NCBI GenBank assembly: GCA_023379605.1
Contig: JAMCQF010000106.1
Coordinates: 1 to 46,436, forward strand
Direction of reading: 5' to 3'
Source of the DNA: Actinomycetota bacterium
GTDB lineage: Bacteria > Actinomycetota > Acidimicrobiia > Acidimicrobiales > JAMCQF01
Length of the DNA stretch: 46,436 nt
Shown one piece after another: positions 28,543 through 44,733 of this stretch (position 1 is the first letter of the stretch; every line of letters begins with the position of its first letter). A model generated the notes under the pieces. The model did not search any database, was not told where the DNA came from, and worked only from the letters and a program-made list of their open reading frames with translations. The position numbers and the translations under genes were made by a program.

Positions 28543-29961
28543 TTAGTAGACAAGCTCTGGGACCTCTGTGCGCGTGCCTGTCTCGCTACCGGCCTCAGGC
28601 TCCTTGGGCTCATCTGGGGGAGTCTTGGCAGTTTTCACCATAAGGCCTATCTCTACTACAGCGAGTATGGAGTACACGCCGGCAAATACAGCAAAGCTTG
28701 TCCCGATATATCCTGTACCGATGTGTGATACAGCCTTTGAGGTCTTGAGCAGACCGTAGACCACCCAGGGTTGGCGACCCATCTCCGTGAAGATCCAGCC
28801 GAAGGTATTGGCGAGGAACGGCACCGGAATGCACCAGACCAGCGCCCAGAGGAACCAGCGCTTCTTCTCCAGGCGCTTTTTCTTGAGCAGCCACAGTCCC
28901 CATAGCCCTACTCCCAGCATCAAGAACCCAAGGCCCACCATGAGGCGGAAGGTCCAGTAGGTGACCCAGATGATCGGCTCGTAGTTGCCTGGGCCGTACT
29001 TCTTCACCTCTGCGGCCTGGACGTTGTCTATGCCGAGCACCTTTCCGTCCCAGGAGCGGTCTGCCAGCACCGAGAGCAGATGGGGCAGGCGGATCTGGAA
29101 GATGGGCTGGCCCGAAAGGTTGCCGATGGTTAGCAGCGAGAAGCTGGCACCGTCCTGGGTGTGGTAGAGAGCCTCGGCCGAGGCCATCTTCATTGGCTGC
29201 TCCTTGGTCATCAGCTGGGCCTGGCTGTCACCGAACCAGATAGTGCCCAGGATCGCGATGAACCCGACCACCAGTGCCACGCGCAACGAGCGGCCGAAGA
29301 TCTCCTGGGAGCGGTTGTGCAGGAGCTGCCATGCGCTCACGCCGAGGACGAAGAACGCACCCGTAGTGTAGGCTGCGAGGACCACGTGGGTGAACTGGCC
29401 GAGCAGGGTTGGGTTGGTCATGACCGCCCAGAAGTCCACCATGACAGCTTGGTGGGTCTTGGGGTCTATCTTGTAGCCCACAGGATGCTGCATCCAGGCG
29501 TTGGCAGAGAGGATGAAGTAGGCAGAGACCGTAGTGCCAAAGGCCACCAGCCATATGGAGATGAGGTGGATCCTGGGCGAGACACGCCCGCGCCCGAAGA
29601 TCCAAATTCCAATGAAGGTGGACTCCAAAAAGAATGCCAGCAGCCCTTCCATGGCCAGAGGTGGCCCGAAAATATTGCCCACAAAGGTTGAGAAGTGCGA
29701 CCAGTCCATGCCGAACTGGAATTCCTGGACGATGCCAGTGACCACGCCGATTGCAAAGTTGATGAGGAAGAGCTTTCCCCACCAGCGCGCCATGGAATCC
29801 CAGTGGGGCTTACCGCTGCGGTAAGCGGCTGTCTGCATGATCGCGACTATGAGAGCCAGGCCGATGGTGAGCGGGACGAAGAGGAAGTGGTAGATGGTGG
29901 TAACACCGAACTGCCACCGTGCCAGGGTCACCGGGGCTACGCCGGCAGCAAGCGGGAGCAT
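28543..29961 (-). CDS. cydA: Cytochrome bd quinol oxidase subunit I
   Basis: LARWQF...HFLFVP, GIVQEFQFG, EGLLAFFLES, QPMKMASAE, TEMGRQPW. Confidence 0.97.
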   Translation of the reverse strand: MLPLAAGVAPVTLARWQFGVTTIYHFLFVPLTIGLALIVAIMQTAAYRSGKPHWDSMARWWGKLFLINFAIGVVTGIVQEFQFGMDWSHFSTFVGNIFGPPLAMEGLLAFFLESTFIGIWIFGRGRVSPRIHLISIWLVAFGTTVSAYFILSANAWMQHPVGYKIDPKTHQAVMVDFWAVMTNPTLLGQFTHVVLAAYTTGAFFVLGVSAWQLLHNRSQEIFGRSLRVALVVGFIAILGTIWFGDSQAQLMTKEQPMKMASAEALYHTQDGASFSLLTIGNLSGQPIFQIRLPHLLSVLADRSWDGKVLGIDNVQAAEVKKYGPGNYEPIIWVTYWTFRLMVGLGFLMLGVGLWGLWLLKKKRLEKKRWFLWALVWCIPVPFLANTFGWIFTEMGRQPWVVYGLLKTSKAVSHIGTGYIGTSFAVFAGVYSILAVVEIGLMVKTAKTPPDEPKEPEAGSETGTRTEVPELVY

Positions 29962-29993
29962 GGCGGAGCTGTAGCGTGTTTGGACGGCGATGG

Positions 29994-30013
29994 CTAGGGT
30001 CCAAAGTCCCTAA
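29994..30013. promoter_or_regulatory. DosR/DevR-type binding site upstream of cydA
   Basis: CTAGGGTCCAAAGTCCCTAA matches the mycobacterial DosR consensus TTAGGGACTAAAGTCCCTAA at 17 of 20 positions; centre is 42.5 nt from the cydA ATG. Confidence 0.8.
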
Positions 30014-30126
30014 CAGGGTGCCTGATAGGCCACAGGCTCTGGGTGCCGGTGCGCCGCGAGGGATCTGTATCCTTTTTCCGTACTTGATCGTCTTAGTTGT
30101 GTAACTCGATCAAGGAGGTTGGAGAG

Positions 30127-30399
30127 ATGAAGATCACAAAGAATGTAGGAACTGCAGATCGCCTGCTCAGGACTTTCGTAGTGACTCCTGCGGCAATAGC
30201 AGGGGCATTGGTTCTAGGAGCAGGATCTGCTGGCGGCATCGTCTTGTGGGTGGTTGCAGGTGTGATGCTTGCTACTGCTGCGAGCGGCTACTGCCCAGCT
30301 TTTGCAGTTTTCGGTATAGATACCTGTGGAAAGCGGGGATGCAATCCTGGTGGCAAGGATGCCAAAGACGCAAAGAGCCAGCTTAGGCACGCAGCGTGA
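30127..30399 (+). CDS. DUF2892 (YgaP-like) small membrane protein
   Basis: KNVGTADRLLR, two TM segments, GYCPAFAVFGIDTC; AGGAGG RBS. Confidence 0.88.
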   Translation: MKITKNVGTADRLLRTFVVTPAAIAGALVLGAGSAGGIVLWVVAGVMLATAASGYCPAFAVFGIDTCGKRGCNPGGKDAKDAKSQLRHAA

Positions 30400-30466
30400 G
30401 GTTATGCCAGTTGTAGGCTCCCAGTCATGATGAGAGCAGGACAACTTGACTGAAGAGGACGTGGGC

Positions 30467-31330
30467 ATGGCTGGAGAAGTTGGTCGGCTGCCTACGTCCT
30501 CTTTGGCGTGCGGGGCCTGCGGAATTGAAGTTGACCAGCTGGCTCAGCTGGCTGTCGATTATTCCGATTCGCTGTATCGCTTTGCGCGCTCGCTTGTGCG
30601 GTCATCTGAGCAGGCCGAAGATCTGGTGCAGCAGACCTTTGAAAGGGCACTTGTCCACCGGGACCAGTTCAAGGGTGGCTCGGCGATCAGCTGGCTTAAG
30701 AAGATACTCCACAATCTCGTCATAGATTCAGCGCGCCATTCGAGCTTTGAAATGCCAGTTGAGGGCGAAGCGCTTGCTTCTCAAGTCGAGGCACACTGGA
30801 TGGATAGCTCCTATAGCGTGGATCCCCAGGTGGTACTCGAGCGAGCAGAGGCAAAAGACCGCCTTGAGGAAGCGCTGATCAGGGTTCCTTACGGCTATAG
30901 GGCGGTCGTGGTGCTCCATGACGAGGAGGGATTAACGCTCAAGGAGATAGCAGATCTCATGAGCCTTGGCCTTCCTGCTGTCAAGCAGCGATTGAGGAGA
31001 GGAAGGATGATGGTGGTTAGCGCACTTGCTGAAGGAGACGAGCGTAGAGAGGCGCTAGTTGATGTCCCTATGACATGCTGGTCTGCCAGGCATGAGGTTT
31101 CTGACTACATAGATGGAGACCTTGGCTCCAGCGAACGGCTTCGCTTGGAGGCTCATCTTGCGCAGTGCCCGACATGCCCACCACTGTACGCGGCCCTGGT
31201 TGGGGTCAAAGCAGAGCTCGGGCGGCTGAGGGATCCAGACAGCGTCATCCCGCCACAGATGGCTGGAAAGTTGGCAGAGAAGATAAGAGCTGAGGGAAGC
31301 TCAAGGTCGCAGCCAGCCGAGCACGGGTGA
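30467..31330 (+). CDS. ECF sigma factor with fused C-terminal zf-HC2 (ZAS-like) domain
   Basis: AEDLVQQTF, WLKKI..N..ID, region 4 LKEIA...VKQRLRRGR, then CWSARHEVSDYIDGDL...HLAQCPTC (HxxxCxxC). Confidence 0.88.
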   Translation: MAGEVGRLPTSSLACGACGIEVDQLAQLAVDYSDSLYRFARSLVRSSEQAEDLVQQTFERALVHRDQFKGGSAISWLKKILHNLVIDSARHSSFEMPVEGEALASQVEAHWMDSSYSVDPQVVLERAEAKDRLEEALIRVPYGYRAVVVLHDEEGLTLKEIADLMSLGLPAVKQRLRRGRMMVVSALAEGDERREALVDVPMTCWSARHEVSDYIDGDLGSSERLRLEAHLAQCPTCPPLYAALVGVKAELGRLRDPDSVIPPQMAGKLAEKIRAEGSSRSQPAEHG

Positions 31331-31370
31331 GCCAGCGGTATGCCAGCCAGAGGTTGGAGCGCTGGAGGTG

Positions 31371-32789
31371 TTATCCAGCTACTGCGCGTGCGGCGCGCGA
31401 GATGCCCTCTGCTGCCATCGGGTGCTGATCGGCAAAGCGTGCCATCTCGTAAGCGCTCATCCCCATCGCAACTGCGATGCCTATCTCGCCTACCAGCTGG
31501 GCAGCGTCTATTCCCACCACCCAGCCCCCTACAAGGCGCAGGCTGTGCTCTTCGAAGAAGAGCCGTATCTCGCCGTAAGTTTCATCAAGGATCTGAGCAC
31601 GCGAGTCCACCTCGAGAGGATAGGCGCTCTCCACAACCGATATAGCGTTCTTTTTGGCGCTGGCCCGGGTCAGCCCTACATAGGATCCTTCCGGGCTGGT
31701 GAAGATCGTGGTAGGAACTGAATTGAAGTCCATGCGGTCCACCGCACGATCACCTGCAAGGATGTTATGGGCAGCGACCAGTGACTGGCGCACTGCTGAG
31801 TGGAAGAGCATGGACCTGCCGTTCACGTCTCCTGGGGCATAGATGTGGCTGAGAGCTGTCTGCATGGTCGGCTGTACACCCAGGCCATGTCCTTCCAGCG
31901 TGAGGCCTATCTCAGCTGCTCCCTGAGGGATCACCGGCTGCCGGCCCACCGCCATCAGCACCTGATCAGCATCTAGGTAACTCGCAGCGCCGTTGTGCTC
32001 GTAGGAGACCTTGAAGCCGTCTCTCGATGACTGGATCGCAGAGACCTTCGCCCCGAGCTCCACTTTGATCCCAGGATCGAGGCCCGCTACCAGCAGGCTT
32101 GTGAAGTCAGGGTCCATCCCGGAAAGGAGCTCATCCAATGCCTCCAGGATGGTCACCTCGCTTCCAAGAGCATGGAACATGCAGGCCACCTCCAAGCCAA
32201 TATAGCCCCCGCCTATTACCGCCAACCGGTGTGGCAGCGAGGTGACCGATGCACCGAGCTTGAATATATCGTGACTTGTCACACATAGCTCCGCTCCGGG
32301 GATCTTGGGGACCAGTACGTCACTGCCAGTTGCCACTATTAGATGGTCTGCACGAAAGAGCTCCTTGCCAGATGGGCCGTCAATCTCCACCGTATGTGGA
32401 TCGATAATCCTGGCCGTTCCTCCCAGGAGCTGGAGGTGGTCGGATAGCTCTGCCAGCTCAGCATCGTGCTGGCGATAGCGAGTCTGCTGTACATGGTCCT
32501 TGTGCTCGAGCACTGCCTTGTAGTCGACCACACTGCCACCACCTGCCCGGTTCGCACCCAAGAGAACCGGGTCAAGGCCGATGCGACTCGCGCCGGCTAT
32601 GGAGCGCCTGCGGAGCTCTGCCACCTCCCTTACGGCTTTGGATGGTACGCACCCTTCAGCCAGGCAGTTGCCGCTCATGACCCCCTTTGTGTCCGCCATT
32701 ACCACTTGATGCCCTGCTCGTGCCAGTGCGAAGGCCGCAGGGTAGGCGCCTCCTCCGGCTCCAAGGGTGAGAGTGTGTACTGTCTTCAT
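31371..32789 (-). CDS. Dihydrolipoyl dehydrogenase-like pyridine nucleotide-disulfide oxidoreductase
   Basis: GAGGGAY FAD motif, GNCLAEGCVPSK redox disulfide, IGGGYIGLE, C-terminal HPMAAE; AAGGAG RBS supports a start at 32789 or 32795. Confidence 0.9.
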   Translation of the reverse strand: MKTVHTLTLGAGGGAYPAAFALARAGHQVVMADTKGVMSGNCLAEGCVPSKAVREVAELRRRSIAGASRIGLDPVLLGANRAGGGSVVDYKAVLEHKDHVQQTRYRQHDAELAELSDHLQLLGGTARIIDPHTVEIDGPSGKELFRADHLIVATGSDVLVPKIPGAELCVTSHDIFKLGASVTSLPHRLAVIGGGYIGLEVACMFHALGSEVTILEALDELLSGMDPDFTSLLVAGLDPGIKVELGAKVSAIQSSRDGFKVSYEHNGAASYLDADQVLMAVGRQPVIPQGAAEIGLTLEGHGLGVQPTMQTALSHIYAPGDVNGRSMLFHSAVRQSLVAAHNILAGDRAVDRMDFNSVPTTIFTSPEGSYVGLTRASAKKNAISVVESAYPLEVDSRAQILDETYGEIRLFFEEHSLRLVGGWVVGIDAAQLVGEIGIAVAMGMSAYEMARFADQHPMAAEGISRAARAVAG

Positions 32790-33077
32790 TTGCAACCGCT
32801 CCTTGTTAGTGCCATCAAGTGACACCCGGCTGGCGGAAACGAACTTAGCCAGTCCGCGAGCCGCTGCGCCGGATGGATCTGCCTGTTGTGAGGCTAGCTG
32901 GTCGCTTCCGCTGGATCTATCCGCAAGGCCCAAGAGTGAAGGGAACCCCACGGTTAAAACAGCGGAACTAGCCTGACAAAAGTGGGAAGCTCTCACTTGC
33001 TGGCAGCACAGCTGCTTAAGTGAGGCTATGGGACTGCTCAACTGTGAGATCGGTTCAATTGGGAAGATGGGAGAGGA

Positions 33078-33773
33078 ATGCCAAGCGAAGATCCCCCTAT
33101 AACAGGTGGAGCAAGTTCAGATGATCCAGGAGACCTTGGACGGCGTGTGGCGGAGCGGAGGCGTGAGCTGGGGCTGAGCAGGGAGGAAGTTGCCCAAAGG
33201 GCAGGGATGGACCCTACTTATGTGGCATACTTAGAAGGCCAGCCCAGCGCCCGCCCAGAGCACTCGACGCTGTTTCGCTTGGCTGTGGCACTTGAGACTA
33301 CGGTGCCAAAGCTCCAGGGTGCAGGGACGGGTTGGCCACCGGGAGCTTCCGTCCTTCCAGCAGGCACTCCCGTCTTCGAGGTCATGACAGACCAGGAGTG
33401 CATGGGCCATATCCGTCTCGGAGGAATAGGACGGCTCGTGTTCGACGACGAGCGTGGCCCTGTGGCACTGCCTGTCAACTTCAGGATGCTCGGAGACGAC
33501 CTGGTGTTTCGCACAGGTGAGGGTTCGATCGCTGCTGGGATCAGAGCGGGGAAGAAGGTCAGCTTGGAGGTAGACCACCTAGATGATGCCCTAGGAGAGG
33601 GATGGAGCGTGCTCATCACAGGAAAGGCTTATGAGGTAACCGACCCCAAGGAGATAGGTCAAGTTAACGAGGTGGGCATAGAGCCATGGGCTGGAGGAGA
33701 TCGTCACGTCGTGGTTCGCTTGGTGCCAACACAGATCACAGGCCGAGAGATCCGTCGTAGGCTCCAAGCTTGA
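33078..33773 (+). CDS. XRE-family HTH fused to pyridoxamine 5'-phosphate oxidase-like (split-barrel flavin-binding) domain
   Basis: RRELGLSREEVAQRAGM...YLE HTH, then GIGRL...PVN..VFRT...EVD...GWSV...PW...ITGR. Confidence 0.88.
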   Translation: MPSEDPPITGGASSDDPGDLGRRVAERRRELGLSREEVAQRAGMDPTYVAYLEGQPSARPEHSTLFRLAVALETTVPKLQGAGTGWPPGASVLPAGTPVFEVMTDQECMGHIRLGGIGRLVFDDERGPVALPVNFRMLGDDLVFRTGEGSIAAGIRAGKKVSLEVDHLDDALGEGWSVLITGKAYEVTDPKEIGQVNEVGIEPWAGGDRHVVVRLVPTQITGREIRRRLQA

Positions 33774-33799
33774 GCAGAGCTCTAGCAGGTTTCAGGGGC

Positions 33800-34882
33800 T
33801 CAGGACCCTTTGGGTGGGGCGCGCTCTGGAGATCTCGCACCTTTGGCGGTCGGGTAGGACCGGTAGTAATCGCGCCAGACAAGCCGGTGGAGCGGTATGA
33901 GCCGAGGGAGATCCCGTATGCCAGGGATGAATGGCGCGAAGAGCAGGGCCAAAGAGCACACTGTCATGATCGCCAAGACCTCTATGTCGCCGTTGTTGGA
34001 GGTAGACATGGGTGGGATCTGGTACCACATCGTGTACAGCCATAGCCACGGCTGCCCAGGCCAGGATCCGGTCTCGTTCATCACGCCCCACTGAGACCCA
34101 GCCATGTTCTGTGCTGTGACGATCTTTCCCCAGTAGCTCGCGCCGTGCTGGGCTTTCCAGGAGTCCCCAATGAACAGGATCGGGTTGGTGTAGTTGGTTA
34201 GATAGAAAGAGGAGTGCTCAACGAGGGCTGTGTCCAACCCACCCGATCGTGCCATCGCCAAGAGGGCGCTCATCATCTCTGCGACAGGTCCGTAGCGAGC
34301 CTTGGGTACCACGAGCCGGCCTGAGGATACCCGGGCCTTTCCGAGCGCTCTTCCGTAGGCGGCATCCCATGCCATCTGCCTGTTGTGGCTCGCAGCCTTG
34401 TAGCGGTCGAGGGCAGCGGTGAGGGCCGGCTGGCCTGATACGGTGCTCAGTGGGTCGAGTATGAAGTCAGTTGCGGGGTTGATCGGGTCTGTGACACCGA
34501 TGGCATTTTGGATCGAGAACCCCCAGAGATTTTGCACAAAGCCGGACTGGTGGTTGTAGGGGGGGCCGTAGGTGGCGGAGTTGCTGGTGCCGTTGAGCTC
34601 AGATAGGGCTATCTCGGTGAACCCCTTTGGTTGGGCAGATGCCCATGCCTGGAGCGTGACCGGAGGGACATCAGGTGAGGAGAACAGCACTGCCAGCAGG
34701 ACCACCAGCACGGTCACCACCAAAAGGGCTATGGTCGCCTCTTTTAGGATGTCATAGCGCCGCTGCGGACCACGCCATGGAGCTGCCTCAGCCGCTCGGC
34801 GCCTTCTTTTCAGCTCGCGTGGGGCAGCTGCGTACTCCTGGCGGCTTGCAGTGCCGGCGGATGGCCCCGTTGGCGTGCTCAC
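33800..34882 (-). CDS. Membrane protein partner of the cytochrome b; resembles cytochrome b6 subunit IV (PetD) with a large extracytoplasmic insertion
   Basis: YDILKE + TM helix, about 200-aa hydrophilic insert, then QPWLWLYTMWYQIPP (PEWY-like position), TM ending LLFAPFIP; 4-nt overlap with the upstream cytochrome b. Confidence 0.6.
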   Translation of the reverse strand: MSTPTGPSAGTASRQEYAAAPRELKRRRRAAEAAPWRGPQRRYDILKEATIALLVVTVLVVLLAVLFSSPDVPPVTLQAWASAQPKGFTEIALSELNGTSNSATYGPPYNHQSGFVQNLWGFSIQNAIGVTDPINPATDFILDPLSTVSGQPALTAALDRYKAASHNRQMAWDAAYGRALGKARVSSGRLVVPKARYGPVAEMMSALLAMARSGGLDTALVEHSSFYLTNYTNPILFIGDSWKAQHGASYWGKIVTAQNMAGSQWGVMNETGSWPGQPWLWLYTMWYQIPPMSTSNNGDIEVLAIMTVCSLALLFAPFIPGIRDLPRLIPLHRLVWRDYYRSYPTAKGARSPERAPPKGS

Positions 34883-35883
34883 AGCACCTCAGAGCTCGGG
34901 GGGGCATATGGGCTGGACATCTCGGTTGTACCGGAGCTTGCTGGCTCATGTCCGACAAGGGTACCGGCCAGTGACATATCGCCAGGGATTCCCGCCGTGC
35001 TGGCAGCTGCCGGCTCATGGAGGGCCTCACTGGCAGGAAGGGAGTGCTCCTCAAGAGCGTCTATGGGGTGCACCACGCCACGCACGCGCACCATGAGGAT
35101 GTGCATAGCCACGATTGCCACAAGCACCAGCGGGACAAAGACTATATGGAGCATGAGCGCCTGACCGAAGTTCATTGTATTGAAGAACGCACCTATGCCC
35201 CCTCCGTTCATGGCATCTTTTGCCTCGAATGCTACCCACTGCGAATCGAAGTTGGTCTGGGAGAGATAGCCGGTGAAGGCCTCGAAAACCGACACGAGAA
35301 AGGCCAGGGCGCCCGTCATCCACGTAAGGGCTCTCCTGCCCCTCCAGGCTGCCATCCAGAACTTGCCCCAGAGGTGGATAGCCATGAAGCCCATGAAGCA
35401 CTCCACGCTCCAGAGATGCAACGAGTTCACAAAGTGCCCCACGGTGCTGGTGTGCCACCATACCGGTCCTTCGAGGGCCAGCACAAGGCCTGAGAGTATG
35501 GCCAGTACCAGCCCCGCCAGGGTGAGGACGCCGAAGACGTAGATCCACGATGCCACATAGGCTGGCTGGCTGTCTGGGAGCAGCTTGGAAGGTGGCAGGG
35601 CTTTTAGCCACATGCGCCTTAGAGCTGCAGTCCACAGCCCGGCCTCGCCCGCGCTGTCCTCAGTGGCATCTGCGGTTTCGCCCTGACTGGGCTGTAGCGG
35701 AAGCGGAGCTTGAGCTTGAGTCTCGTGGGATTTGCGCCTGGTATGTATGAAAGGGACGGTGAGCGCCGCTACGAACAGCACGAGCATAGCCACGATCACA
35801 AGCAGGTTCGCAAGCGATATGAGGATGAAGCCCCAGTGTATGTAGTGGTCTCTCGAGTTCAGCTGGACTATCGCTCCGAGCAC
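34879..35883 (-). CDS. Cytochrome b N-terminal (b6-like) di-heme membrane protein
   Basis: WIYVFG, SLHLWS...AIHLW, TWMTG, GYLSQ..FDSQW, LHIV...MHI give four heme-ligating His; start set at GTG 35883 (TAGCAT hexamer 7 nt upstream). Confidence 0.88.
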   Translation of the reverse strand: MLGAIVQLNSRDHYIHWGFILISLANLLVIVAMLVLFVAALTVPFIHTRRKSHETQAQAPLPLQPSQGETADATEDSAGEAGLWTAALRRMWLKALPPSKLLPDSQPAYVASWIYVFGVLTLAGLVLAILSGLVLALEGPVWWHTSTVGHFVNSLHLWSVECFMGFMAIHLWGKFWMAAWRGRRALTWMTGALAFLVSVFEAFTGYLSQTNFDSQWVAFEAKDAMNGGGIGAFFNTMNFGQALMLHIVFVPLVLVAIVAMHILMVRVRGVVHPIDALEEHSLPASEALHEPAAASTAGIPGDMSLAGTLVGHEPASSGTTEMSSPYAPPSSEVL

Positions 35884-35916: not shown

Positions 35917-35936
35917 AAAGGGGCTAAAGGCCCGAA
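35917..35936. promoter_or_regulatory. DosR/DevR-type site upstream of the cytochrome b pair
   Basis: AAAGGGGCTAAAGGCCCGAA; core matches GGGACTAAAGTCCC at 12 of 14; centre 43.5 nt from GTG 35883. Confidence 0.7.
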
Positions 35937-36116: not shown

Positions 36117-36542
36117 TTAGTGCACCACAACCACCGGGCAGGTGGCATGGGCAGCGCAGTGCTGGCTCACGGAGCCGAGCAGCATGCCCTTGAAGCCCCC
36201 ATGGCCCTGGCTTCCCACCACCAGCAGGTCTGCGCCCTGCGCTGCTCCGAGCAGCGCAGGGACCGGATGGGATTCGATCACCCTCAGGCTCACCTCCATC
36301 TCCGGGGAGGGCCCGAGGGCCTCGGTAACCGTCTCTTTCAATGACTTCTCCGCCTCGGCCTCTGGGTCGAAGTGCTCCGGGACCGGTGAAAAGCCCCATG
36401 ACGCCGGAAGCTCCCAGGCGGTTATCACCTCCAGCGCCGCGCCGGTCAAGCTGGCTTGGCGTGCTGCCCAGCGAAGGGCGGCCTTTGACTGCTCCGAGCC
36501 GTCTACGCCCACTACGATACGACTGGCTTGGGACTGTGGCAC
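36117..36542 (-). CDS. Universal stress protein (single USP domain)
   Basis: RIVVGVDGS..SKAALRWAA, ADLLVVGSQGHGGFKGMLLGSVS..C..HA.CPVVVV; AAGGAG RBS before GTG 36542. Confidence 0.95.
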   Translation of the reverse strand: MPQSQASRIVVGVDGSEQSKAALRWAARQASLTGAALEVITAWELPASWGFSPVPEHFDPEAEAEKSLKETVTEALGPSPEMEVSLRVIESHPVPALLGAAQGADLLVVGSQGHGGFKGMLLGSVSQHCAAHATCPVVVVH

Positions 36543-36673
36543 TTCCTGCTCCTTTGGTAGTCGCTCCTGGTATTGACATCCTCCCCATGGCAGCGCGTTC
36601 GCGCCAACACACCATGGCTCAGCCTGGGGTGGCTTGACCACTTTCACGCTCAAGCCAAGCTACCAGGGCGAGC

Positions 36674-37234
36674 TCAAATGCGTGGGGTACCGCTCTTACG
36701 GCTTGGGGGATCTGTGTTGGGCTTTCCGCCAGGTCCGCCGCATAGATCTACAGCCACCGCGACCTGGTCTTTGACTACATCCAAGGCCTCCAAAACTAGG
36801 TCGTGAACCGTGCAAGGTCCCCCTGGAGAAGCACACTGTGCCAGCTCGCCCTCGCCCGTGAGGACCTCCGCCTCCCTGGCGAAGAGCTCTATGGCCTGAA
36901 CTGCGCGCACTACCAGGATATTGGTGGGCAGCTCCTCAGGGACCTGCCAGGGACCGGTATCACCTATGGGGGCCACAAATGCCGTCTCCAGCCCCGCGCT
37001 GTCTTCTACTCGCCTGATCCTGTGCCCGAGCGCAGTCAGGGTGTGGTCGAGAGTGGAGAGCGCATCGCGAAGGATCCACTCGCTTGGAGCAAAGCCAGCC
37101 GAGGTCCCACCTTCCTGGCTTGGCGAAGAGCCCCTTTCACCCGCTGTCGCCCACAGCTCTTCGGCTAACGCTCGCATCATCTGGGCCGCTTCTGCAGCAG
37201 AGATCCAGCTTGTGGGGGGAGGTACTGCCATCAC
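36674..37234 (-). CDS. Hypothetical helical protein (possibly degenerate DinB-like)
   Basis: Open frame upstream of the USP gene; PSEWILRDALSTLDH..ALGHRIRR loosely resembles DinB-type helical bundles; start GTG 37234 fits the DosR-box geometry. Confidence 0.45.
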   Translation of the reverse strand: MMAVPPPTSWISAAEAAQMMRALAEELWATAGERGSSPSQEGGTSAGFAPSEWILRDALSTLDHTLTALGHRIRRVEDSAGLETAFVAPIGDTGPWQVPEELPTNILVVRAVQAIELFAREAEVLTGEGELAQCASPGGPCTVHDLVLEALDVVKDQVAVAVDLCGGPGGKPNTDPPSRKSGTPRI

Positions 37235-37267: not shown

Positions 37268-37287
37268 ACAGGGTCCAATGGCCTGTT
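37268..37287. promoter_or_regulatory. DosR/DevR-type site upstream of the hypothetical-USP unit
   Basis: ACAGGGTCCAATGGCCTGTT; centre 43.5 nt from GTG 37234, CAAAAT hexamer in register. Confidence 0.6.
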
Positions 37288-37469
37288 GCCATTGCGACCC
37301 AGCTCAGGCCATCCAAGTGCTCGCGCCGCTTGGTCTCTTACAGGGCACCAGATGCTAAAGAAAGAGATCTCCACTCAAGACACATGCTGGGAGCTGTTGT
37401 AGCAGTACTGTGACTTATTCGAGGTAGTGGGTCCGTGGGTGCTGCGACCTCGACTGCCAGAGAGGTCCG

Positions 37470-38781
37470 ATGGATACCAGCCAACCGAGCAAGCTGCACG
37501 CCATACTGCGCCCACCATGGGTCAACAGAACGCTCACGCTGGTGTGGTCTGCGCGGGTGTCTATGAGCGCAGGTCGGGCGCTGGCTGGGGTCATCGCTCC
37601 TTTGTACTTAGCTGAGCTTGGCTTCAGCGGGTTGCGGCTGGGGGAGATGTTCGTAGCGATAGCGCTCCTGTCGGCTTTGATGTCAGCGAGCGTGGGCATT
37701 CTCTCCGACCGGGTTGGACGAAAACCGTTCCTTATCATCTTCCCGATCCTTACCTCTGCTGCGGCAGTTGTCTTTGCCACCATGCACTCGATCCCGGTGC
37801 TCTTTGTGGCGGCGGCCGCGGGGAGCTTCGGGCGTGGCTCAGGAGCTGGAGCAGGCGCTGTAGGGCCTTACCAGCCTGCCGAATCGGCTCTGGTGACCGA
37901 GGTGACGCCGTCCTACTGGCGCAACGCGGCGTTCGGCCGACTCCAGTTCGGCTCCTCTCTTGGAGCCCTGGCTGGATCGCTGCTCGCCATCCTGGCTCAC
38001 AGCTCCCATGGAGCAAGCGCGCAGTCTGCGTTGGCTGCTTTCAGACTGGCCTTTCTAGCGACGGCCCTGGTGTCTTTGATCGCAGGGGTGCTTGCGGTGT
38101 GGATCTCTGAGCCGGTGCGCTCCTCTCGGCCATCACGGGCCAAGGGACGTCCCAGGTTGCCGGTCAAGTCACGCAGCCTGCTGCTTAGGCTGTGGGCTAC
38201 CAACTCTGTGAATGGCTTGGCGGTGGGGATGATCGGTCCGTTCCTCACGTACTGGTTCTACAGGCGCTTTGGGGCAGGTCCCGAGGAGATCGGCTTATTG
38301 TACGCTGCGGTCAATGCCGTAAGCATGAGCTCGACGCTCTCTGCTGCCGGGCTTGCCAGAAGGTGGGGACTGGTCAAAACCGTAGCCGTGGTAAGGGCGC
38401 TCACGGCCGGTTCTCATAGTTCCCATGGTGCTGGCTCCTACGTTCATCCTTGCCGGGGTCGCCTACATGCTTAGAATGGTGGTCCAGCGTGCGGGAATGC
38501 CGCTTAGGCAGTCCTATGTGGTGGCGATGGCAGATCCGCAGGAGAGGTCCTCGGTGGCAGCGCTTTCGAACGTGCCCAGCCAGGTCGCCATGGGGCTAAG
38601 CCCGCTTGCTGCCGGCTACTTGATAGACGAGGTCAGCTTGAGCCTGCCCTTCGAGATAGCTGGGGTCTTCCAGCTTCTAAACGGCGCCATGTACTGGTAT
38701 TTCTTCCGCAACATGCCCCCGGTGGAGGAGACTGAGGTAGTCGTAGCCCTCGGTGCTGACGAGCAGAGTGGCGCTGCCTGA
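37470..38781 (+). pseudogene. MFS transporter with one frameshift near 38410 (or a sequencing error)
   Basis: GILSDRVGRK motif A; removing one G from ggccGgttctc fuses ORF 37470-38474 to ORF 38425-38781 (ALTAVLIVPMVLAP...), giving a full-length MFS protein. Confidence 0.8.
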
Positions 38782-38861
38782 GCGCAACAGCCATGCCGGA
38801 TCGCAAGGCTGCAGTGATGCTGTCTGGGCCAGAGCAGATCGAGCCATGGCCGCCGAGTTGA

Positions 38862-38922
38862 GCAGCCGGGTCGGGTCTCCTTGATGAGCGGTCATGGCAG
38901 CCGGGTCGGGTCTCTTTGATGA
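38862..38922. repeat. 26-bp direct repeat x2 (1 mismatch), period 35 bp
   Basis: gcagccgggtcgggtctc(c/t)ttgatga at 38862-38887 and 38897-38922, abutting the DosR-type box. Confidence 0.85.
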
Positions 38923-38941
38923 AAGGGACTTTCAGCCCTGG
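38922..38941. promoter_or_regulatory. DosR/DevR-type site upstream of the por operon
   Basis: AAAGGGACTTTCAGCCCTGG with a perfect GGGACT half-site. Confidence 0.65.
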
Positions 38942-39025
38942 AAAATGCCCGCTTGGAGGCAGAAGATAACGCGTGGGCTCAAATCTGTCCTCGATGAGGT
39001 GAGCGAGCTCGAAGAGAGGTGAGTG

Positions 39026-39467
39026 GTGTTCCAGGTGCGCATTCATGGTCGCGGTGGCCAGGGAGTGGTTACCGCGGCAGAGCTGCTCTCAGTCGCAGCT
39101 TTCGAGCAGGGGCTCTATGCCCAGGCTTTCCCTGCTTCGGCTCGGAGCGCATGGGCGCTCCGGTGGCGGCATTCTGCCTGCCAGCGAGATCGCGACAAGG
39201 CTCCTTGGGCGAGCTATGCCCAACTCCGCGTTGCTCGGGGCCCTGTCTGGGCTAACCGGCATTATCTCCATCGATGCGCTCGGTTAGGCGCTGCGCAAGC
39301 GCTTTACTCTTGAGGTCGCGCAGGCGAACCTGCATGCAGCCAGGGATGGGTATGCTCAGGCGGTCGCTCGCCGCACTGAGCGCTCGGCTATGCAACCGGT
39401 GGTCGCATCCCTGGCTGGCGCAGGACCGGAATCTTTAGGAGCTGATGGGGAGCATAGCCATGCTTGA
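39026..39467 (+). pseudogene. porC: Pyruvate/2-oxoacid:ferredoxin oxidoreductase gamma subunit, disrupted
   Basis: [20 protein letters not shown]...QAFP; -1 frameshift at about 39133 ([11 protein letters not shown] continues in another frame); central part missing between AFC and LPASEIA; in-frame TAG at 39285-39287; tail ANLHAARDGY ends overlapping porA. Confidence 0.85.
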
Positions 39468-40713
39468 TCAGATCGAAGGCTCGCGAGCCGTCGCGGGCGC
39501 GGTGGCAGCTTGCAGGCCGGAGGTGATTTGCGCCTACCCGATCTCACCTCAGACCCACATCGTGGAGGACCTAAGCGTAGCGGTGAAGACCGGTGCTCTC
39601 GCGCCTTGCGAGTTCATCAACGTAGAGTCGGAGTTTGCCGCTATGTCGGTATCAATTGGAGCATCGGCAGCTGGGGCCCGCGCGTACACAGCAACAGCCA
39701 GCCAGGGCCTTTTGTACATGATCGAGGCGGTGTACAATGCTGCTGGTCTCGGGCTTCCCATCGTTATGACCTTGGCAAATCGCGCGATAGGGGCACCGAT
39801 CAATATCTGGAACGATCATAGCGATGCCATGGCCGTTCGGGACTCGGGATGGATTCAGCTCCATGCTGCGACCAATCAGGACGCGGTCGACTTGCACATC
39901 CAGGCCTTTAGGTTGGCAGAGGAGGTGTCGCTCCCGGTCATGGTGTGCATGGACGGCTATATCCTGACCCATGCAGTCGAGCGCATAGATCTTCCTTCTC
40001 AAGGGGAGGTAGATGCGTTCTTGCCTCCGTTCGTACCCAGGCAGATCCTTGATCCGTCAGAACCGGTCTCCATAGGAGCGATGGTTGGCCCGGACGCCTT
40101 CGCGGAAGTTCGGTACCTCGCCCATGCCAAGCAGCTCTTGGCGCTGGAGCGTATCCCCATTGTCGCCTCGGAGTTCAAAGAAGCATTCGGTCGTGGGTCT
40201 GGGGGCTTGGTGGACCCATACAAGCTAGATGGTGCGGAAACCTGCGTGGTTGCCATGGGCTCTGTCATAGGCACCATCAAAGACGCCATAGATGAGCTCT
40301 CTGATCGAGGTATTCCAATCGGCCTGCTCGGCATCACGGCGTTCCGTCCTTTTTCGATAGAGGCTGTGTCTGCCGCTTTGGAGGGAGTTGAGCGTGTCGT
40401 GGTCGTGGAGAAGGCCTTTGCGGTGGGGATAGGAGGGATCCTCTCGGCTGACGTAGCCACGGCACTGGGCCACAGGCCCATTCGTCGCTATGGGGTTGTG
40501 GCAGGGCTCGGAGGCCGGCCGATACCGAAAGCATCGCTTATCGGCCTTTTCGAGCAGGCCGTAGCAGATGAGCTTGAACCGCTCAGCTTTCTCGATCTGG
40601 AGAGGTCGGTGGTGGAGAGAGAGCTGGAGAGGATGAGGCTCGATCCAAGATCAGGTCCTGCTGCCGAGAATATGCTTGCAGACATAGGCATTGTTAGAGC
40701 AGGGCCGTTTTGA
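39460..40713 (+). CDS. porA: Pyruvate:ferredoxin oxidoreductase alpha subunit
   Basis: AYPISPQT, ESEFAAMS, TATASQG, NRAIGAPINIWNDHSD, DGYILTH, GLGGR. Confidence 0.93.
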   Translation: MLDQIEGSRAVAGAVAACRPEVICAYPISPQTHIVEDLSVAVKTGALAPCEFINVESEFAAMSVSIGASAAGARAYTATASQGLLYMIEAVYNAAGLGLPIVMTLANRAIGAPINIWNDHSDAMAVRDSGWIQLHAATNQDAVDLHIQAFRLAEEVSLPVMVCMDGYILTHAVERIDLPSQGEVDAFLPPFVPRQILDPSEPVSIGAMVGPDAFAEVRYLAHAKQLLALERIPIVASEFKEAFGRGSGGLVDPYKLDGAETCVVAMGSVIGTIKDAIDELSDRGIPIGLLGITAFRPFSIEAVSAALEGVERVVVVEKAFAVGIGGILSADVATALGHRPIRRYGVVAGLGGRPIPKASLIGLFEQAVADELEPLSFLDLERSVVERELERMRLDPRSGPAAENMLADIGIVRAGPF

Positions 40714-40855
40714 ACTTGGTGGTGCTTGCAGCGCTGACAGGGAAAGAACGCTTAAGTCGTTGTGGCTTGGAACCTTGCATTGGAGCTGGTGCTGCTTGCA
40801 GGGCTGGCGTTGCAGGAACCACTTGGAGGCAAAGATGGCCGGGAAGGAGAGATAG

Positions 40856-41869
40856 ATGACATATCGACCGGTCAAGTTCTACCAGACCGGGAGCTTCGCT
40901 GTAGGCAACCGGCTATTGGGCAGGGAGGGTGAGAAAGTTCAGGCAACCATAGAGCGGGCCAACTCTCTTACTCTCGGCCATAGAGCTTGCCAGGGCTGCG
41001 GTGAGGCGCTCGGTGCCCGCTACGTTCTCGATGCCGCCATGCGAGCAGCCCAAGGCAAGGTGATCGCCACCAACGCAACCGGGTGCCTGGAGGTATTCAC
41101 CACACCCTATCCTGAGACATCCTGGCAGATCCCGTGGCTCCATTCGGTCTTCGGTAACGCTGCTTCGGTTGCAACAGGTGTTGCGGCAGCGCTCAAGGCA
41201 AAAGGAAGAACCGACGTGCGTGTTGTCGCTCAGGCCGGTGACGGGGGTGCCGTCGACATCGGGCTTGCTTGCCTGTCGGGCATGTTGGAGCGCAACGACG
41301 ACGTGTTATTCGTCTGCTATGACAACGAGGCCTATATGAACACTGGCGTCCAGCGCTCCGCAGCAACCCCCCCCTGCGGCTCGCACGGCCACACCGAAGC
41401 GGTTGGAGCCGAGCCAGGCAACCCATTTGGCCAGGGCAAGAACCTCCCACTTATAGCTATGGCCCATGAGATTCCCTATGTGGCAACTGCTACGGTGGCC
41501 GACCTGGGTGATCTTGAGTACAAGGTCGAGCGGGCGATGTCGTTTCATGGGGCGCGCTACTTGCATGTCTTGGTGCCCTGCCCGCTCGGTTGGGGCTCCA
41601 AGCCGGGCGACACCATCGCTGTCGCTCGCCTGGCAAAGGAGTGCGGCCTGTTCCCAGTCATCGAGGCAACCCAAGGAGAGCTCACAGCAGTATCGCCAAT
41701 TCGTAAGCAGGTGCCGGTGCAGGAGTACCTAAGGCGGCAGAGCCGCTACGCACATATCTTCGAGCCCACTGTTCGCCGTGACATCATAGATCGCCTGCAG
41801 GCAATCGCGGATCGAAACATCCGTCGTTTCGGGCTGCTGGCCGACAATGAAGTGTCTACAGCGCTATAG
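40856..41869 (+). CDS. porB: Pyruvate:ferredoxin oxidoreductase beta subunit (TPP-binding)
   Basis: GHRACQGCG, NATGCLE, GDGG...YDNEAYMNTG.QRS, VPCPLGWG. Confidence 0.92.
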   Translation: MTYRPVKFYQTGSFAVGNRLLGREGEKVQATIERANSLTLGHRACQGCGEALGARYVLDAAMRAAQGKVIATNATGCLEVFTTPYPETSWQIPWLHSVFGNAASVATGVAAALKAKGRTDVRVVAQAGDGGAVDIGLACLSGMLERNDDVLFVCYDNEAYMNTGVQRSAATPPCGSHGHTEAVGAEPGNPFGQGKNLPLIAMAHEIPYVATATVADLGDLEYKVERAMSFHGARYLHVLVPCPLGWGSKPGDTIAVARLAKECGLFPVIEATQGELTAVSPIRKQVPVQEYLRRQSRYAHIFEPTVRRDIIDRLQAIADRNIRRFGLLADNEVSTAL

Positions 41870-42182
41870 CCCAAGCACGCTTAGTGGCTCTATGTCGGTA
41901 CGTGCTCAAGGGAGGCGGAAGCGTCTCGGATCGCGGAAAACGGCCAAGGTAGGGGTTACCCTCTCTGCCAGCTTCATGCATGGCTTGGCGCAGGAGCGAG
42001 TAAGCGCGATCCGATGCCCTCCCCCGGGGACCCAGGTAGAATGCCTGTTGGAAGTAGATCGGGTCTATCTCCTTGTGAAGCTGGGTGAAATGGATACAGC
42101 GGTCCCTTATCGCGCTATAGAGGCCAACAGCCACGTTCACGAGTCCGAAGCTCAGGTATCCTGTCCATATAGGGCGTGCCAT
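41856..42182 (-). pseudogene. ku: Ku (NHEJ) remnant with internal deletion and truncation
   Basis: MARPIWTGYLSFGLVNVAVGLYSA...IHFTQLH is joined directly to EIDPIYF..AFYLGP....AYSLLRQAM; the intervening ring segment and the C-terminal half are missing. Confidence 0.88.
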
Positions 42183-42369
42183 CGTCACCTACTTTCTGTC
42201 AAGCTGTTGGTCTGGTCAACTGGATCTTGGGTGTAGTCCCACAAGCCGGTGACGAAGAGATGCTTGGCTGCATCTCATACCTTATTCCATCTACCTAGGA
42301 TCTCGACACGCGCCGAGCTGGAAGTGAGTGGGTAGACCCGTCAATAATCACTAAAGGGCCATATCGCCC

Positions 42370-43026
42370 CTAGCGGCTGTCTCCGAAGATGCGCAGAAAG
42401 AAAAGAAAGATATTTAGCGCACCGAGAAAAATTGAGGCGGCCAGCAAGGGGGCAGAATCAAGGTTCTGCGAACGCCGTAGCCGTTGGAAGTCGAACATGG
42501 TCAACCCCGCGAAGATGACCAAACCTACCACCGAAAAGAGCAGGGAGCCGCCTGGTATGTGGATGAAGATCATCACTATGGCGAAGATGATCAGAGCGAA
42601 AAGCGCAAAGAAGCTTACACGGCCCACCATTGACAAGTCGCGCCGGGTGGCATATCCGATGCTTCCGAAGCCGGCAAGGAACAGTGCCGTAGCTCCTCCT
42701 GCCTGCCAAAGTGCCTGAGGGTTGGTGGCAGCATAGTAGGAGAGCATCGGGGCTACAGCCAGGCCCATAAGGACACCGAACCCAAACAGTAAAACAGTGG
42801 GAGCCGTCTCGGAGTGGCGCACAGCAAATCGCATCGCTATAAGGCATGCAAATGCAGCGATGAACCAAAGCAGTCCTAGCTGGTAGGCCAAGTTACGGCC
42901 CAGATAGGAGCCCAAGGCAAACAGTGCTGCGGTGGCAGCTACCAAGCCCATGGTCTGGCCGAAAAGGGTTCTGGTACGGTCTCTTACCAGTGAACCACCG
43001 CTGTCGAATGAGTATAGATTGGTCAC
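42370..43026 (-). CDS. Bax inhibitor-1/YccA family membrane protein
   Basis: About 7 TM segments; GYATRRDLS, IFAGLTMFDFQRLRR, LLAASIFL..LNIFLFFLRIFG. Confidence 0.9.
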   Translation of the reverse strand: MTNLYSFDSGGSLVRDRTRTLFGQTMGLVAATAALFALGSYLGRNLAYQLGLLWFIAAFACLIAMRFAVRHSETAPTVLLFGFGVLMGLAVAPMLSYYAATNPQALWQAGGATALFLAGFGSIGYATRRDLSMVGRVSFFALFALIIFAIVMIFIHIPGGSLLFSVVGLVIFAGLTMFDFQRLRRSQNLDSAPLLAASIFLGALNIFLFFLRIFGDSR

Positions 43027-43061
43027 TGCTTGCCCCTTACTCCTCCAGCTTGTAAGTATGC

Positions 43062-43787
43062 TCAGGCCTGAGATTCCCCGGGCAAGCCAACTTGACCGGG
43101 TGGCTCTTCGAGGCTCTCTACAAGGTGGCGGGCTGCTGCGAGCAGCTCGCCCTCGCTTAGGGCTTTGGCATCCACGCGCTGATCTATGAGGATGCGCAGT
43201 GGCAGCTCCTGCAGCTCCTTTGTGATCCTCTCCCAAACCAGCTTGGCAGCGTCGGAGTGCCCATCTCCGTGGCCAAAGATGACCACGGTATCAGCACGTT
43301 TTAGGCCGTCGGCGATGGCGCGGTAGTAGGCGGGCTCCTCGGGTGCACGCTGACCCTTGTAATGGCCCTCCATGTGATGTAGATGGCGCAGGTGTCCCTC
43401 AGGATCGTAAGGGACTATAGTCCCTATATGCTCCGCGGCCGGCTCGAACTCATAGATCGTAGCGGAGTGGTGGTTAACGACCAACAGCAGGTGCAGGCCA
43501 ATGCTGGATCTTCTCGGTTCAACACTTAAGTCCCCGAGAAAGCGCCGCAGCTTGACGACCATATCCGTGGGGATATCACCGTGATGAGGGGGGCTGAACA
43601 CCTCGGTGCGGTCGTTTATGGTCACCCGGTAGCGGTCCTTGCTCTCGACGGCGACCTCCCCCATGGCCTCGAGCAGAGCCAGCACCTGTGGCCATTTGAT
43701 GTTCGCAGGGAGTGGGTGGCCCAGGAGCTTGTGCAAAGTGCGGCGTTGCTCGCTGTCGAGGTGGTGCTGATGGGCCTGCTCTGTCAT
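43062..43787 (-). CDS. Fusion of a HicA-like N-terminal domain and a baeRF/eRF1-domain-2-like C-terminal domain
   Basis: RRTLHKLLGHPLPANIKWPQVLALLEAMG...RYRVTIN....FSPPH....VVKLRRFL (HicA-like); LLVVNHHSATIY...HLHH....YYRAIADGL..ADTVVIFGHG (baeRF-like). Confidence 0.65.
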   Translation of the reverse strand: MTEQAHQHHLDSEQRRTLHKLLGHPLPANIKWPQVLALLEAMGEVAVESKDRYRVTINDRTEVFSPPHHGDIPTDMVVKLRRFLGDLSVEPRRSSIGLHLLLVVNHHSATIYEFEPAAEHIGTIVPYDPEGHLRHLHHMEGHYKGQRAPEEPAYYRAIADGLKRADTVVIFGHGDGHSDAAKLVWERITKELQELPLRILIDQRVDAKALSEGELLAAARHLVESLEEPPGQVGLPGESQA

Positions 43788-43878
43788 GGGTGGCTGCTCG
43801 CTGTTGCCATATGAGTTTCAGGCTAGCCGATACGATCCAGAAGAGGTGCCCGGCTTTGCACTGCGGCTCGGCTCTCGA

Positions 43879-44139
43879 TCAGCCTCTGTCGTATGCTTCT
43901 AGCAAGCTTGCGATTATCCTTCGCACCTCTGCCAAGGGCTCGGTGTCCGCAGAGCGTCTGGCCGTGTAGAGCCCAGCGAGGAACGTCGTGAGAGGTGCAA
44001 GGCTGCGTTGGGAGGTCCCATGGGCCACCTCGCCGGCCAAGGCAAGAACCTCGTCCATCTCTTGCGGGCTTATGTCTCGTACTTCGAGGGCATTTACGAC
44101 CTGCTTTGTCCAGGCGATTGCCGGGTCTGTCTGCTCCAC
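43879..44139 (-). CDS. DUF6457-like small protein (domain usually linked to molybdenum cofactor guanylyltransferase MobA)
   Basis: W...V..AL....DEVLALAGEVAHG..RSLAPLTTFLAG; AGGAGG RBS before GTG 44139. Confidence 0.75.
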   Translation of the reverse strand: MEQTDPAIAWTKQVVNALEVRDISPQEMDEVLALAGEVAHGTSQRSLAPLTTFLAGLYTARRSADTEPLAEVRRIIASLLEAYDRG

Positions 44140-44622
44140 CAGTGGTGGCCTCCTGTGCTCGGGGTAGGGCTCTATATGCAACCAGCCCACCGTAGCGCTT
44201 GGGTAAGCCAACCGTGCCGGATAAGGTGGTCAGGCTCTGCTCGGCCTTGAGATCTGTGACATGTTGCAGAGCATCGGAGGCAGCTTGTCTAAGCGGCGAT
44301 CCACTGCGGGCTCGCTGCGTGGCTGGCCCACGCTGGACTATCGGGGATCTTGCCATCGACCTCTTACGGCTGGCGAGGGTTCTTCCAAGAGCCTTCTCAG
44401 CTAGGCTCCTGGAGGAGTTACCACCTTCCTCATCCACAGCGCGCACCCCACCAGGCAACTACACCCTGGTAGGCCCTCACTAGAGCCGAAAGTCACTTTT
44501 CGATGCCCAAATGCAGAAAGCTCAGAGCTTAGGACAGGCGTATTTGAGCGGTTGGCTTGAAGTGTACTCGCCCTCTACGGGCTGGTAGCAGATGCCATGT
44601 GCATCTGGCTCATATATGAGCG

Positions 44623-44642
44623 ATTGGGACCTTCGGCCCTGG
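44623..44642. promoter_or_regulatory. DosR/DevR-type site upstream of the Fe-S flavoprotein-ppsA unit
   Basis: ATTGGGACCTTCGGCCCTGG, core GGGAC-CTTC-GGCCC. Confidence 0.75.
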
Positions 44643-44733
44643 TTGAGGCGGCCCGAAGAGGCGAGGATATCAAAGCTGGGCGCGGCGAGCTAGCACATGG
44701 AGGGCTGGTAAATCTGGCAAGGAGGTGTCGGCT

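Follow-up and report, generated by a model that had tools for sequence, protein, structure and literature searches.

The question raised by the window, the 46,436-nt contig JAMCQF010000106.1 (C106) of an Acidimicrobiales metagenome-assembled genome (MAG), is whether a set of 14-bp palindromes dispersed among its genes belongs to a genuine low-oxygen regulon, and, if so, which protein reads these boxes and which genes they place under its control. An initial interpretation made without database searches (the sequence-only reading) had described five such operators in identical promoter register and had likened them to the sites of Mycobacterium DosR/DevR and Streptomyces OsdR. By its sequence features, this Acidimicrobiia MAG has a genuine regulon of the DevR/DosR type, which is an ordinary, known kind of system, and the boxes are very probably the operators of a DevR/DosR-type response regulator encoded on another contig of the assembly, C174.

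The five 14-mers originally described were found to be exact in both letters and coordinates. They are listed here together with a sixth box, the scores being those of a palindromised matrix built from the five window sites; the sequences are read toward the downstream gene, and each of boxes 1 to 5 is followed directly by a T and, 23 nt past the box end, by the -10-like hexamer named.

29997 to 30010, minus strand: box 1, GGGACTTTGGACCC, 16.5 bits, hexamer TACAGC at 29973-29968, precedes cydA
35920 to 35933, minus strand: box 2, GGGCCTTTAGCCCC, 16.0 bits, hexamer TAGCAT at 35896-35891, precedes the cytochrome b-like gene
37271 to 37284, minus strand: box 3, AGGCCATTGGACCC, 12.2 bits (weakest of the five), hexamer CAAAAT at 37247-37242, precedes the operon of a 186-aa protein and a universal stress protein (USP)
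38925 to 38938, plus strand: box 4, GGGACTTTCAGCCC, 14.0 bits, hexamer GAAGAT at 38962-38967, with T in the right half-site where C is usual, precedes the pyruvate oxidoreductase (POR) operon
44626 to 44639, plus strand: box 5, GGGACCTTCGGCCC, 15.5 bits, hexamer GAGGAT at 44663-44668, precedes a GltD-like flavoprotein gene
43411 to 43424, no strand: box 6, perfect 14-bp Dev-type palindrome, 18.0 bits, inside a 241-aa open reading frame (ORF) at 43062-43787 on the minus strand

The region contains six strong boxes rather than the five first reported, the perfect palindrome of box 6 having been overlooked. It is the top-scoring site of the whole genome in the matrix scan, and no -10 hexamer stands in register with it on either strand. 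The ORF around it could be assigned to no known family and has a Bax1-I/YccA-like gene downstream. The earlier remark that no such boxes were noticed in the left 23 kb of the window held up, as the best match there, at 22978 within a gene, scores 11.6 bits and falls short of even the lowest-scoring of the five. The assignment of the motif to the DosR/DevR/OsdR type is likewise borne out by comparison with sites of known function. The 14-nt core of box 5 equals the site listed for SCO5979 in Streptomyces coelicolor, for which a 16-nt OsdR consensus is given and in which the SCO5978-5979 intergenic probe was bound in an electrophoretic mobility shift assay (PMC5069765). Positions G5 and C7 of each half-site, reported by Chauhan et al. 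to be essential for DevR (PMC3177182), are both kept in nine of the ten half-sites of the five boxes, the exception being the right half of box 4.

A loosened IUPAC pattern, GGGNCNNNNNGNCC, showed no enrichment in the window (16 matches vs. 17.9 expected), and the position matrix was therefore used in its place for a genome scan of the kind that the sequence-only reading had proposed. The scanned assembly, a 74% complete MAG, comprises 2.50 Mb in 228 contigs, over which the ORF picker yielded 2052 genes covering 85% of the bases. Promoter zones were defined as intergenic DNA plus the first 60 nt of the longest ORFs and amount to 483 kb outside the window. These zones hold 24, 12, 6 and 2 matches at thresholds of at least 12.17, 14, 15 and 16 bits, respectively, compared with means of 9.2, 2.7, 1.2 and 0.4 in dinucleotide shuffles (maxima of 100 shuffles: 20, 8, 4 and 3). 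At the 14-bit threshold, where 2.7 matches are expected, none of the 100 shuffles reaches the 12 observed, and the motif thus stands above shuffled expectation in DNA that did not contribute to the matrix. The remaining coding DNA (1.97 Mb) shows no excess, with 43, 15, 7 and 2 matches at the same thresholds against 43, 11.2, 4.9 and 1.3 expected from 20 shuffles. The excess is therefore found in promoter zones only and, as the scanned DNA lay outside the window, owes nothing to the training sites. It is hardly credible that the palindromes have no regulatory role, whether as chance GC-rich matches or as structural elements such as hairpins or repeats. The loosened pattern, no commoner than in shuffles, and the strong matrix matches found inside some genes would fit such an origin, but the restriction of the enrichment to promoter zones and the fixed distance to a -10 hexamer argue against it, as does the lack of any terminator-like context among the boxes.

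This fixed distance is the second feature shared by the boxes. The -10-like hexamers, previously placed 30.5 to 35.5 nt from the box centres toward the downstream gene, begin exactly 23 nt past the box end in all five cases, and the T directly after the box, oriented toward the same gene, is present in five of five. Across the genome, 11 of the 62 orientations scored in promoter zones have an nAnnnT hexamer at offset +23, compared with 0 to 5 at each of 19 other offsets and 2 of 98 orientations inside genes. Promoter-zone sites scoring 14 bits or more number 16, four of them in the window and 12 elsewhere. Seven of the 16 have both the T and nAnnnT in register, box 1 has the T with TACAGC, and the site at C117 622 forms the distal half of a tandem pair. 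Four of the 16, about a quarter of the recognisable operators, sit within 15 kb of window sequence. A composite of lower stringency (box of at least 8 bits, T and hexamer) proved too noisy to extend the regulon, with 27 occurrences at offset 23 and 10 to 28 elsewhere.

With the usual 17-nt spacer, the conserved T would be the first base of an otherwise poor -35 hexamer, and the box would span about -49 to -36 with its centre near -42.5. This geometry is that expected of an activator abutting the -35 element and agrees with the earlier suggestion of activation from a position overlapping -35. A regulator dimer would bind the palindrome next to the poor -35 hexamer and, from the box, recruit RNA polymerase to weak promoters. 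The opposite arrangement, in which a dimer beside the -35 element blocks RNA polymerase until a signal removes it, is very unlikely. A site at -49 to -36 would be able to occlude the polymerase, and the intragenic box at 43411, having no promoter in register, could act as a roadblock. However, the promoters have no usable -35 and mostly a poor -10, and none of the five passes a sigma-70 consensus scan, as is typical of activator-dependent promoters; moreover, the -42.5 position, at which the primary box of tgs1 is centred, activates in Mycobacterium tuberculosis (PMC3177182).

The start codons behind boxes 1 to 3 had been located 42.5 to 43.5 nt from the box centres, with leaderless mRNAs as the implication, and these distances are confirmed at 42.5 nt for the ATG at 29961 and 43.5 nt for the GTG codons at 35883 and 37234. 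For box 3, the longest ORF starts at an ATG (37243) that overlaps the hexamer, and the in-frame GTG at 37234 is the start that fits. The gap between hexamer and start is 6 nt behind box 1, the ATG beginning at the 7th nt, and 7 nt behind boxes 2 and 3, where the GTG begins at the 8th. Of 1396 genes called with confidence, 85 have a TANNNT with a gap of 6 nt to the start codon, and gaps of 7, 8 and 9 nt are seen in 33, 29 and 23, respectively, with all other gaps from 0 to 39 accounting for 3 to 15 genes each. This peak indicates that leaderless promoters are common in this genome, and the transcripts of cydABDC, the cytochrome b-like gene and the genes for the 186-aa protein and USP are probably leaderless, in keeping with the genome-wide signature. 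The leaders predicted behind boxes 4 and 5 are about 50 to 60 nt long: that of box 4 is about 50 nt with a Shine-Dalgarno sequence and a first gene start near 39023, and box 5 is followed by a Shine-Dalgarno sequence at 44720-44726 before the ATG at 44734.

The regulator gene, correctly said to lie outside the window, was found on C174 adjoining a sensor kinase with a GAF domain, and the two make up the DevR/DosS-like pair that was sought in the genome:

G000:C174 772 to 1434, minus strand: DevR orthologue, 220 aa, with a GerE match and a match to M. tuberculosis DevR (PDB 3c3w) at E 5.9e-71
C174 1612 to 2820, divergent from the regulator gene: sensor kinase, 402 aa, with GAF (single), HisKA_3 and HATPase domains

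The regulator aligns with 3c3w over its full length (residues 3-212) at about 55% identity as counted on the alignment, the next best match being VraR (8e-41). It is identical to DevR at aligned positions 54, 179, 182 and 183, which we take to be the phospho-acceptor Asp (54) and the DNA-contact residues of the recognition helix (179, 182 and 183). The GAF domain of the kinase matches DosT (2vzw) at 3e-46 and the heme-binding GAF-A domain of DevS (2w3d) at 2.1e-41, and the protein is a DosT/DevS-type kinase with a predicted heme-type GAF sensor. It would sense low O2 (or NO, CO or the redox state) and phosphorylate the regulator. A PNPOx-like gene downstream of the regulator carries a 13.6-bit box, and a USP gene is present on the same contig.

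Binding of the boxes by another NarL/LuxR-family regulator instead of the DevR orthologue, for example the one encoded on C157 beside a GAF-HisKA_3 kinase, is unlikely. Four GerE-domain regulators were found in an assembly that is itself incomplete, the C157 pair has a GAF kinase too, and no box lies upstream of the DevR orthologue itself. Nevertheless, identity to the C174 protein is no higher than 41% for the C157 regulator and 38% for that of C2, and the third regulator did not match it at E <= 1e-30. The C157 and C2 translations, as read, also depart from DevR at the recognition-helix positions that contact DNA, and the box matches experimentally bound OsdR and DevR sites.

Comparison with relatives bears on the DevR assignment as well. 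CydA has its nearest counterparts, at 59-63% identity, in MAGs that carry the labels Acidimicrobiaceae, Acidimicrobiales or Actinomycetes, which places the organism in the Acidimicrobiia; near-identical DNA (at least 90% of sampled words) occurs in 12 runs from five studies of mine tailings, mine drainage and unlabelled metagenomes. In 24 of 40 genomes of the same order DevR finds a match at 52% identity or more, against about 44% at most for paralogues, and cydA is rare, being present in five. A box upstream of cydA is found in G015 (11.4 bits) and G037 (10.4 bits), both of which have a DevR orthologue, although these boxes are weaker than box 1; none is found upstream of cydA in G009, in which the best regulator match is 35% identical and a DevR orthologue is lacking. 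In these three close cases the cydA box tracks the DevR orthologue, which further disfavours a different GerE regulator. A POR of the type seen here was found in only one of the 40 genomes, G001, where porG is preceded by two boxes (15.1 and 14.9 bits) 40 bp apart, the proximal one followed by T, 23 nt, GAGAGT, 6 nt and GTG. In G015 the GltD-like gene is preceded by a box of 12.2 bits, with its hexamer at offset 24; in G002, for which no DevR orthologue was found, the gene has no box. Boxes of 14-16 bits lie upstream of the cytochrome b-like gene in G036 (both copies; this genome has one case of paired boxes, 22 bp apart), G037 and G022, amounting to four of eight loci in three of seven genomes, with no box near the start of this gene in G001, G002, G019 and G038. 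In relatives bearing DevR, boxed copies were thus seen of all four genes (cydA, POR, the GltD-like gene and the cytochrome b-like gene). The recurrence of boxes upstream of orthologous genes in other genera is again difficult to reconcile with chance palindromes. In two relatives (G033:C32 and G015:C12), phosphoketolase and the DevR orthologue are encoded on one contig at a distance of 5-9 kb, and no strong box stands directly before the phosphoketolase gene, with none in the former and one of 10.7 bits in the latter.

The association of the box with cydA extends beyond the order. A set of 80 cydA loci from named genomes was assembled, mostly from Actinomycetota and not phylogenetically independent, of which 79 were used and one was dropped as 5'-truncated. 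A box of at least 10 bits lies within 250 nt upstream of cydA in 31 of these 79 loci, including those of Amycolatopsis, Actinoplanes, Herbidospora, Virgisporangium, Nakamurella and Acidimicrobiaceae MAGs, and the 21.3 kb of cydA-upstream DNA holds 33 matches compared with 29 in the other 315 kb of the same loci. The T follows the box in 20 of the 31 boxed loci, and nAnnnT peaks at offsets 23 and 24 (8 and 10 of the 31, respectively, others 0-3). A regulator 52-67% identical to the C174 protein is encoded in all five of the cydA genomes sampled, four of them boxed and one, from Kitasatospora, unboxed.

Several observations weigh against the assignment of the boxes to a DevR regulon and have to be set beside this evidence. 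The genes used for the statistics came from the author's own crude ORF picker based on codon usage, applied to a genome that is only 74% complete. Seven of the 16 strong promoter-zone sites have neither the register nor a tandem role, where about three would be expected by chance. Within the window, box 3 is weak (12.2 bits), box 4 has one deviant half-site and the box 1 hexamer lacks the final T. No box of at least 5 bits lies between the devR and devS-like genes on C174, and there is thus no sign of autoregulation. Upstream of phosphoketolase, boxes within 400 nt were found at only two of the relatives' loci, in G006 (15.1 and 11.2 bits) and G015 (10.7 bits), among the seven of nine scanned, the two 5'-truncated loci having been left out. 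Furthermore, the five window sites are single, with no second box within 45 nt of any of them (the best flank scores 2.5 bits, against a random 95th percentile of 5.6), whereas tandem boxes are obligatory in M. tuberculosis, where every DevR promoter described in PMC3177182 has at least two and none has a single box. To judge from sequence, the five are single, and cryptic secondary sites may be present; tandem or paired boxes do occur elsewhere, at spacings of 22 to 40 bp, on C117 and C218, upstream of porG in G001 and in G036.

The genes behind the five window boxes are as follows:

28543 to 29961, minus strand: cydA (Pfam Cyt_bd_oxida_I, 4e-171), behind box 1
27343 to 28536, minus strand: cydB (Pfam Cyt_bd_oxida_II, 2.5e-106), box 1 operon
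25408 to 27321 and 23631 to 25475, minus strand: two cydDC-type ABC genes (Pfam ABC_tran and ABC_membrane), box 1 operon
23631 to 29961, minus strand: the whole cydABDC operon, behind box 1
34879 to 35883, minus strand: cytochrome b-like membrane protein (Pfam Cytochrom_B_N_2, 4e-09), behind box 2
33800 to 34882, minus strand: 360-aa membrane protein of no known family, box 2 operon
36674 to 37234, minus strand: 186-aa protein of no known family (Pfam/NCBIfam), behind box 3
within 36117 to 36653, minus strand: USP (Pfam Usp, 1.1e-29), second gene of the box 3 operon
39023 to 39440, plus strand: disrupted porG remnant, first gene of the box 4 POR operon
39445 to 40713, plus strand: porA (NCBIfam PorA, 1.5e-127, below the equivalog cut-off), behind box 4
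40856 to 41869, plus strand: porB (NCBIfam PorB, 5.9e-92, below the equivalog cut-off), behind box 4
44734 to 46359, plus strand: 541-aa GltD/NfnB-like NAD(P)-binding flavoprotein with a C-terminal PorD domain (2x[4Fe-4S]), behind box 5

The cytochrome b-like protein has only weak matches in NCBIfam, to ExtP and cytochrome b6, and the POR operon matches POR_N (2e-68) and TPP_enzyme_C in Pfam. The box 5 gene had been taken for phosphoenolpyruvate (PEP) synthase, an identification that has to be abandoned, as Pfam finds in it no PEP-utilising or pyruvate phosphate dikinase families. It matches Fer4_20 and Pyr_redox_2 in Pfam and NF009410 in NCBIfam (740.7 bits, cut-off 516), and PorD matches at residues 484-540 mark its last 57 residues as a PorD-type two-cluster ferredoxin domain. 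In G001, a genome of the same family, the GltD-like flavoprotein gene directly follows porB, which suggests that the box 4 and box 5 operons probably encode one enzyme system; POR and the GltD-PorD fusion would then probably act as a single pyruvate oxidoreductase linked to NAD(P). In this strain the POR operon has a broken porG, with one base missing after 39133, about 211 nt missing at 39174-39178 and a TAG at 39285-39287. The disrupted form is also present in runs X1 and X2, and intact forms of porG occur in G001 and in runs X7 and X8. The X8 contig has the extra A, about 206 extra letters and a C at 39286; the X7 main contigs have a C at 39286, and X7 has both junction forms. A 25-nt direct repeat with one mismatch (38863-38887 and 38898-38922) lies just upstream of box 4, its second copy ending 2 nt before the box.

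Among the neighbouring genes, that of a major facilitator superfamily (MFS) transporter (37470-38781) is split into two ORFs in the window. The contigs of all four runs compared lack one base at window position 38407, which would restore a single MFS frame, and the split is therefore a window-specific indel or an assembly error. At 30446-31330, a single 294-aa ORF combines ECF sigma-70 regions 2 and 4 with a zf-HC2 anti-sigma zinc finger behind them, perhaps because a sigma and an anti-sigma factor are fused or because the ORF call joined two genes. Between the box 1 and box 2 operons, the gene at 33078-33773 encodes HTH_31 fused to a PNPOx-like domain (Pyridox_ox_2) and has no box of its own. 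The ORFs at 43823-44458 and 41847-42236 were dropped as genes, as they look spurious (Arg-rich, no family).

Targets on other contigs widen the regulon. Boxes in register precede phosphoketolase and acetate kinase on C117 (two boxes 23 bp apart), HSP20 on C5, an erythromycin-esterase-like gene on C218 (box at 4829), a TIG-domain protein on C80 and, more weakly, a Mo-hydroxylase on C200. A phosphoribosyltransferase-dienelactone hydrolase (PRTase-DLH) fusion and a divergent GT4 glycosyltransferase on C218 share two boxes 28 bp apart, one proximal to each gene. The erythromycin-esterase-like gene (locus 3477-4542) appears as two ORFs, one of 144 and one of 200 aa, perhaps through a frameshift or an assembly error. 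Dormancy-type genes are well represented, with HSP20, PRTase-DLH, erythromycin-esterase-like and PNPOx-like genes boxed and USP in the box 3 operon; we take HSP20, USP, the PRTase-hydrolase fusion and the esterase-like protein to be families of the M. tuberculosis DosR regulon, the PRTase-DLH fusion presumably being Rv0571c-like. The view of the sequence-only reading that the boxes drive a different programme is overstated, in that classic genes are boxed along with those for cytochrome bd, the cytochrome b-like protein and POR. In the window, the programme would comprise high-affinity respiration by cytochrome bd, a b-type cytochrome module, a stress protein and NAD(P)-coupled pyruvate oxidation via the PorD-flavoprotein fusion, and elsewhere in the genome it would add phosphoketolase and acetate kinase along with the classic dormancy genes.

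The system shares with M. tuberculosis DevR an orthologous regulator with the phospho-acceptor Asp and recognition-helix residues kept, a heme-type GAF kinase resembling DevS and DosT, the GGGxC...GxCCC palindrome with a box centre predicted to lie near -42.5, and targets including HSP20, USP and the PRTase-DLH fusion. Its main difference in architecture is that the five window sites are single boxes; it differs further in its 402-aa kinase with one GAF, in the lack of a box upstream of the regulator gene, and in targets that include cydABDC, the POR and its NAD(P)-linked PorD fusion, and the pair of phosphoketolase and acetate kinase. Both Rv0571c and hspX are among the DevR promoters described in PMC3177182. 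In Mycobacterium smegmatis, cytochrome bd is induced by hypoxia within the low-oxygen response, but the induction of cydA is reported to be DevR-independent and Crp-dependent, with cydAB outside the 49-gene DevR regulon (PMC7739888), whereas here a Dev-type box stands at the cydA promoter. The DevR regulon and cytochrome bd are also treated as separate responses in PMC8125079. The OsdR/OsdK system of S. coelicolor has the same consensus core and, like the present one, targets USP genes; the cyd and cytochrome terms are absent from the main text of PMC5069765, whereas a box is found here at cydA, and cydAB of S. coelicolor is placed under Rex in PMC7739888. The control of cydAB by ArcBA and FNR in Escherichia coli is an oxygen-responsive transcriptional control of a high-affinity oxidase (PMC7739888), but the regulator families and motifs are unrelated and the resemblance is one of functional analogy only. 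A literature search whose scope did not extend to supplements or to the dormancy-regulon comparative genomics of Gerasimova et al. 2011 returned only mycobacterial work in which DosR/DevR and cytochrome bd are kept apart, and no paper tying a Dev box to cydA or DosR to Acidimicrobiia, and the link between Dev box and cydA is not claimed here as unpublished.

Within a system of otherwise familiar kind, three local features are conspicuous: promoters with a single box, many of them probably leaderless; targets in respiration and pyruvate oxidation; and a link between the box and cydA which, judging from the loci compared, appears widespread outside the model organisms. A broader proposal, to which we give an even chance of being right, is that Dev-box control of cydABDC is widespread and possibly ancestral in Actinomycetota and is missing from M. 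smegmatis, which uses Crp, and S. coelicolor, which uses Rex, and that in Acidimicrobiales DevR acts on single -35-abutting boxes at often leaderless promoters to couple a cytochrome bd switch to an NAD(P)-linked pyruvate oxidoreductase in which a GltD-like flavoprotein and the delta subunit form one fused protein. If true, the regulon would be a respiratory and fermentative hypoxia programme and not a dormancy programme. The oxidase, the pyruvate-oxidising enzymes and the sensor together provide a sequence-level reconstruction of the response to O2 limitation in an uncultured acid-mine member of the Acidimicrobiia. The findings further suggest that the textbook split between the DosR regulon and cytochrome bd, derived from mycobacteria, fails across the phylum.

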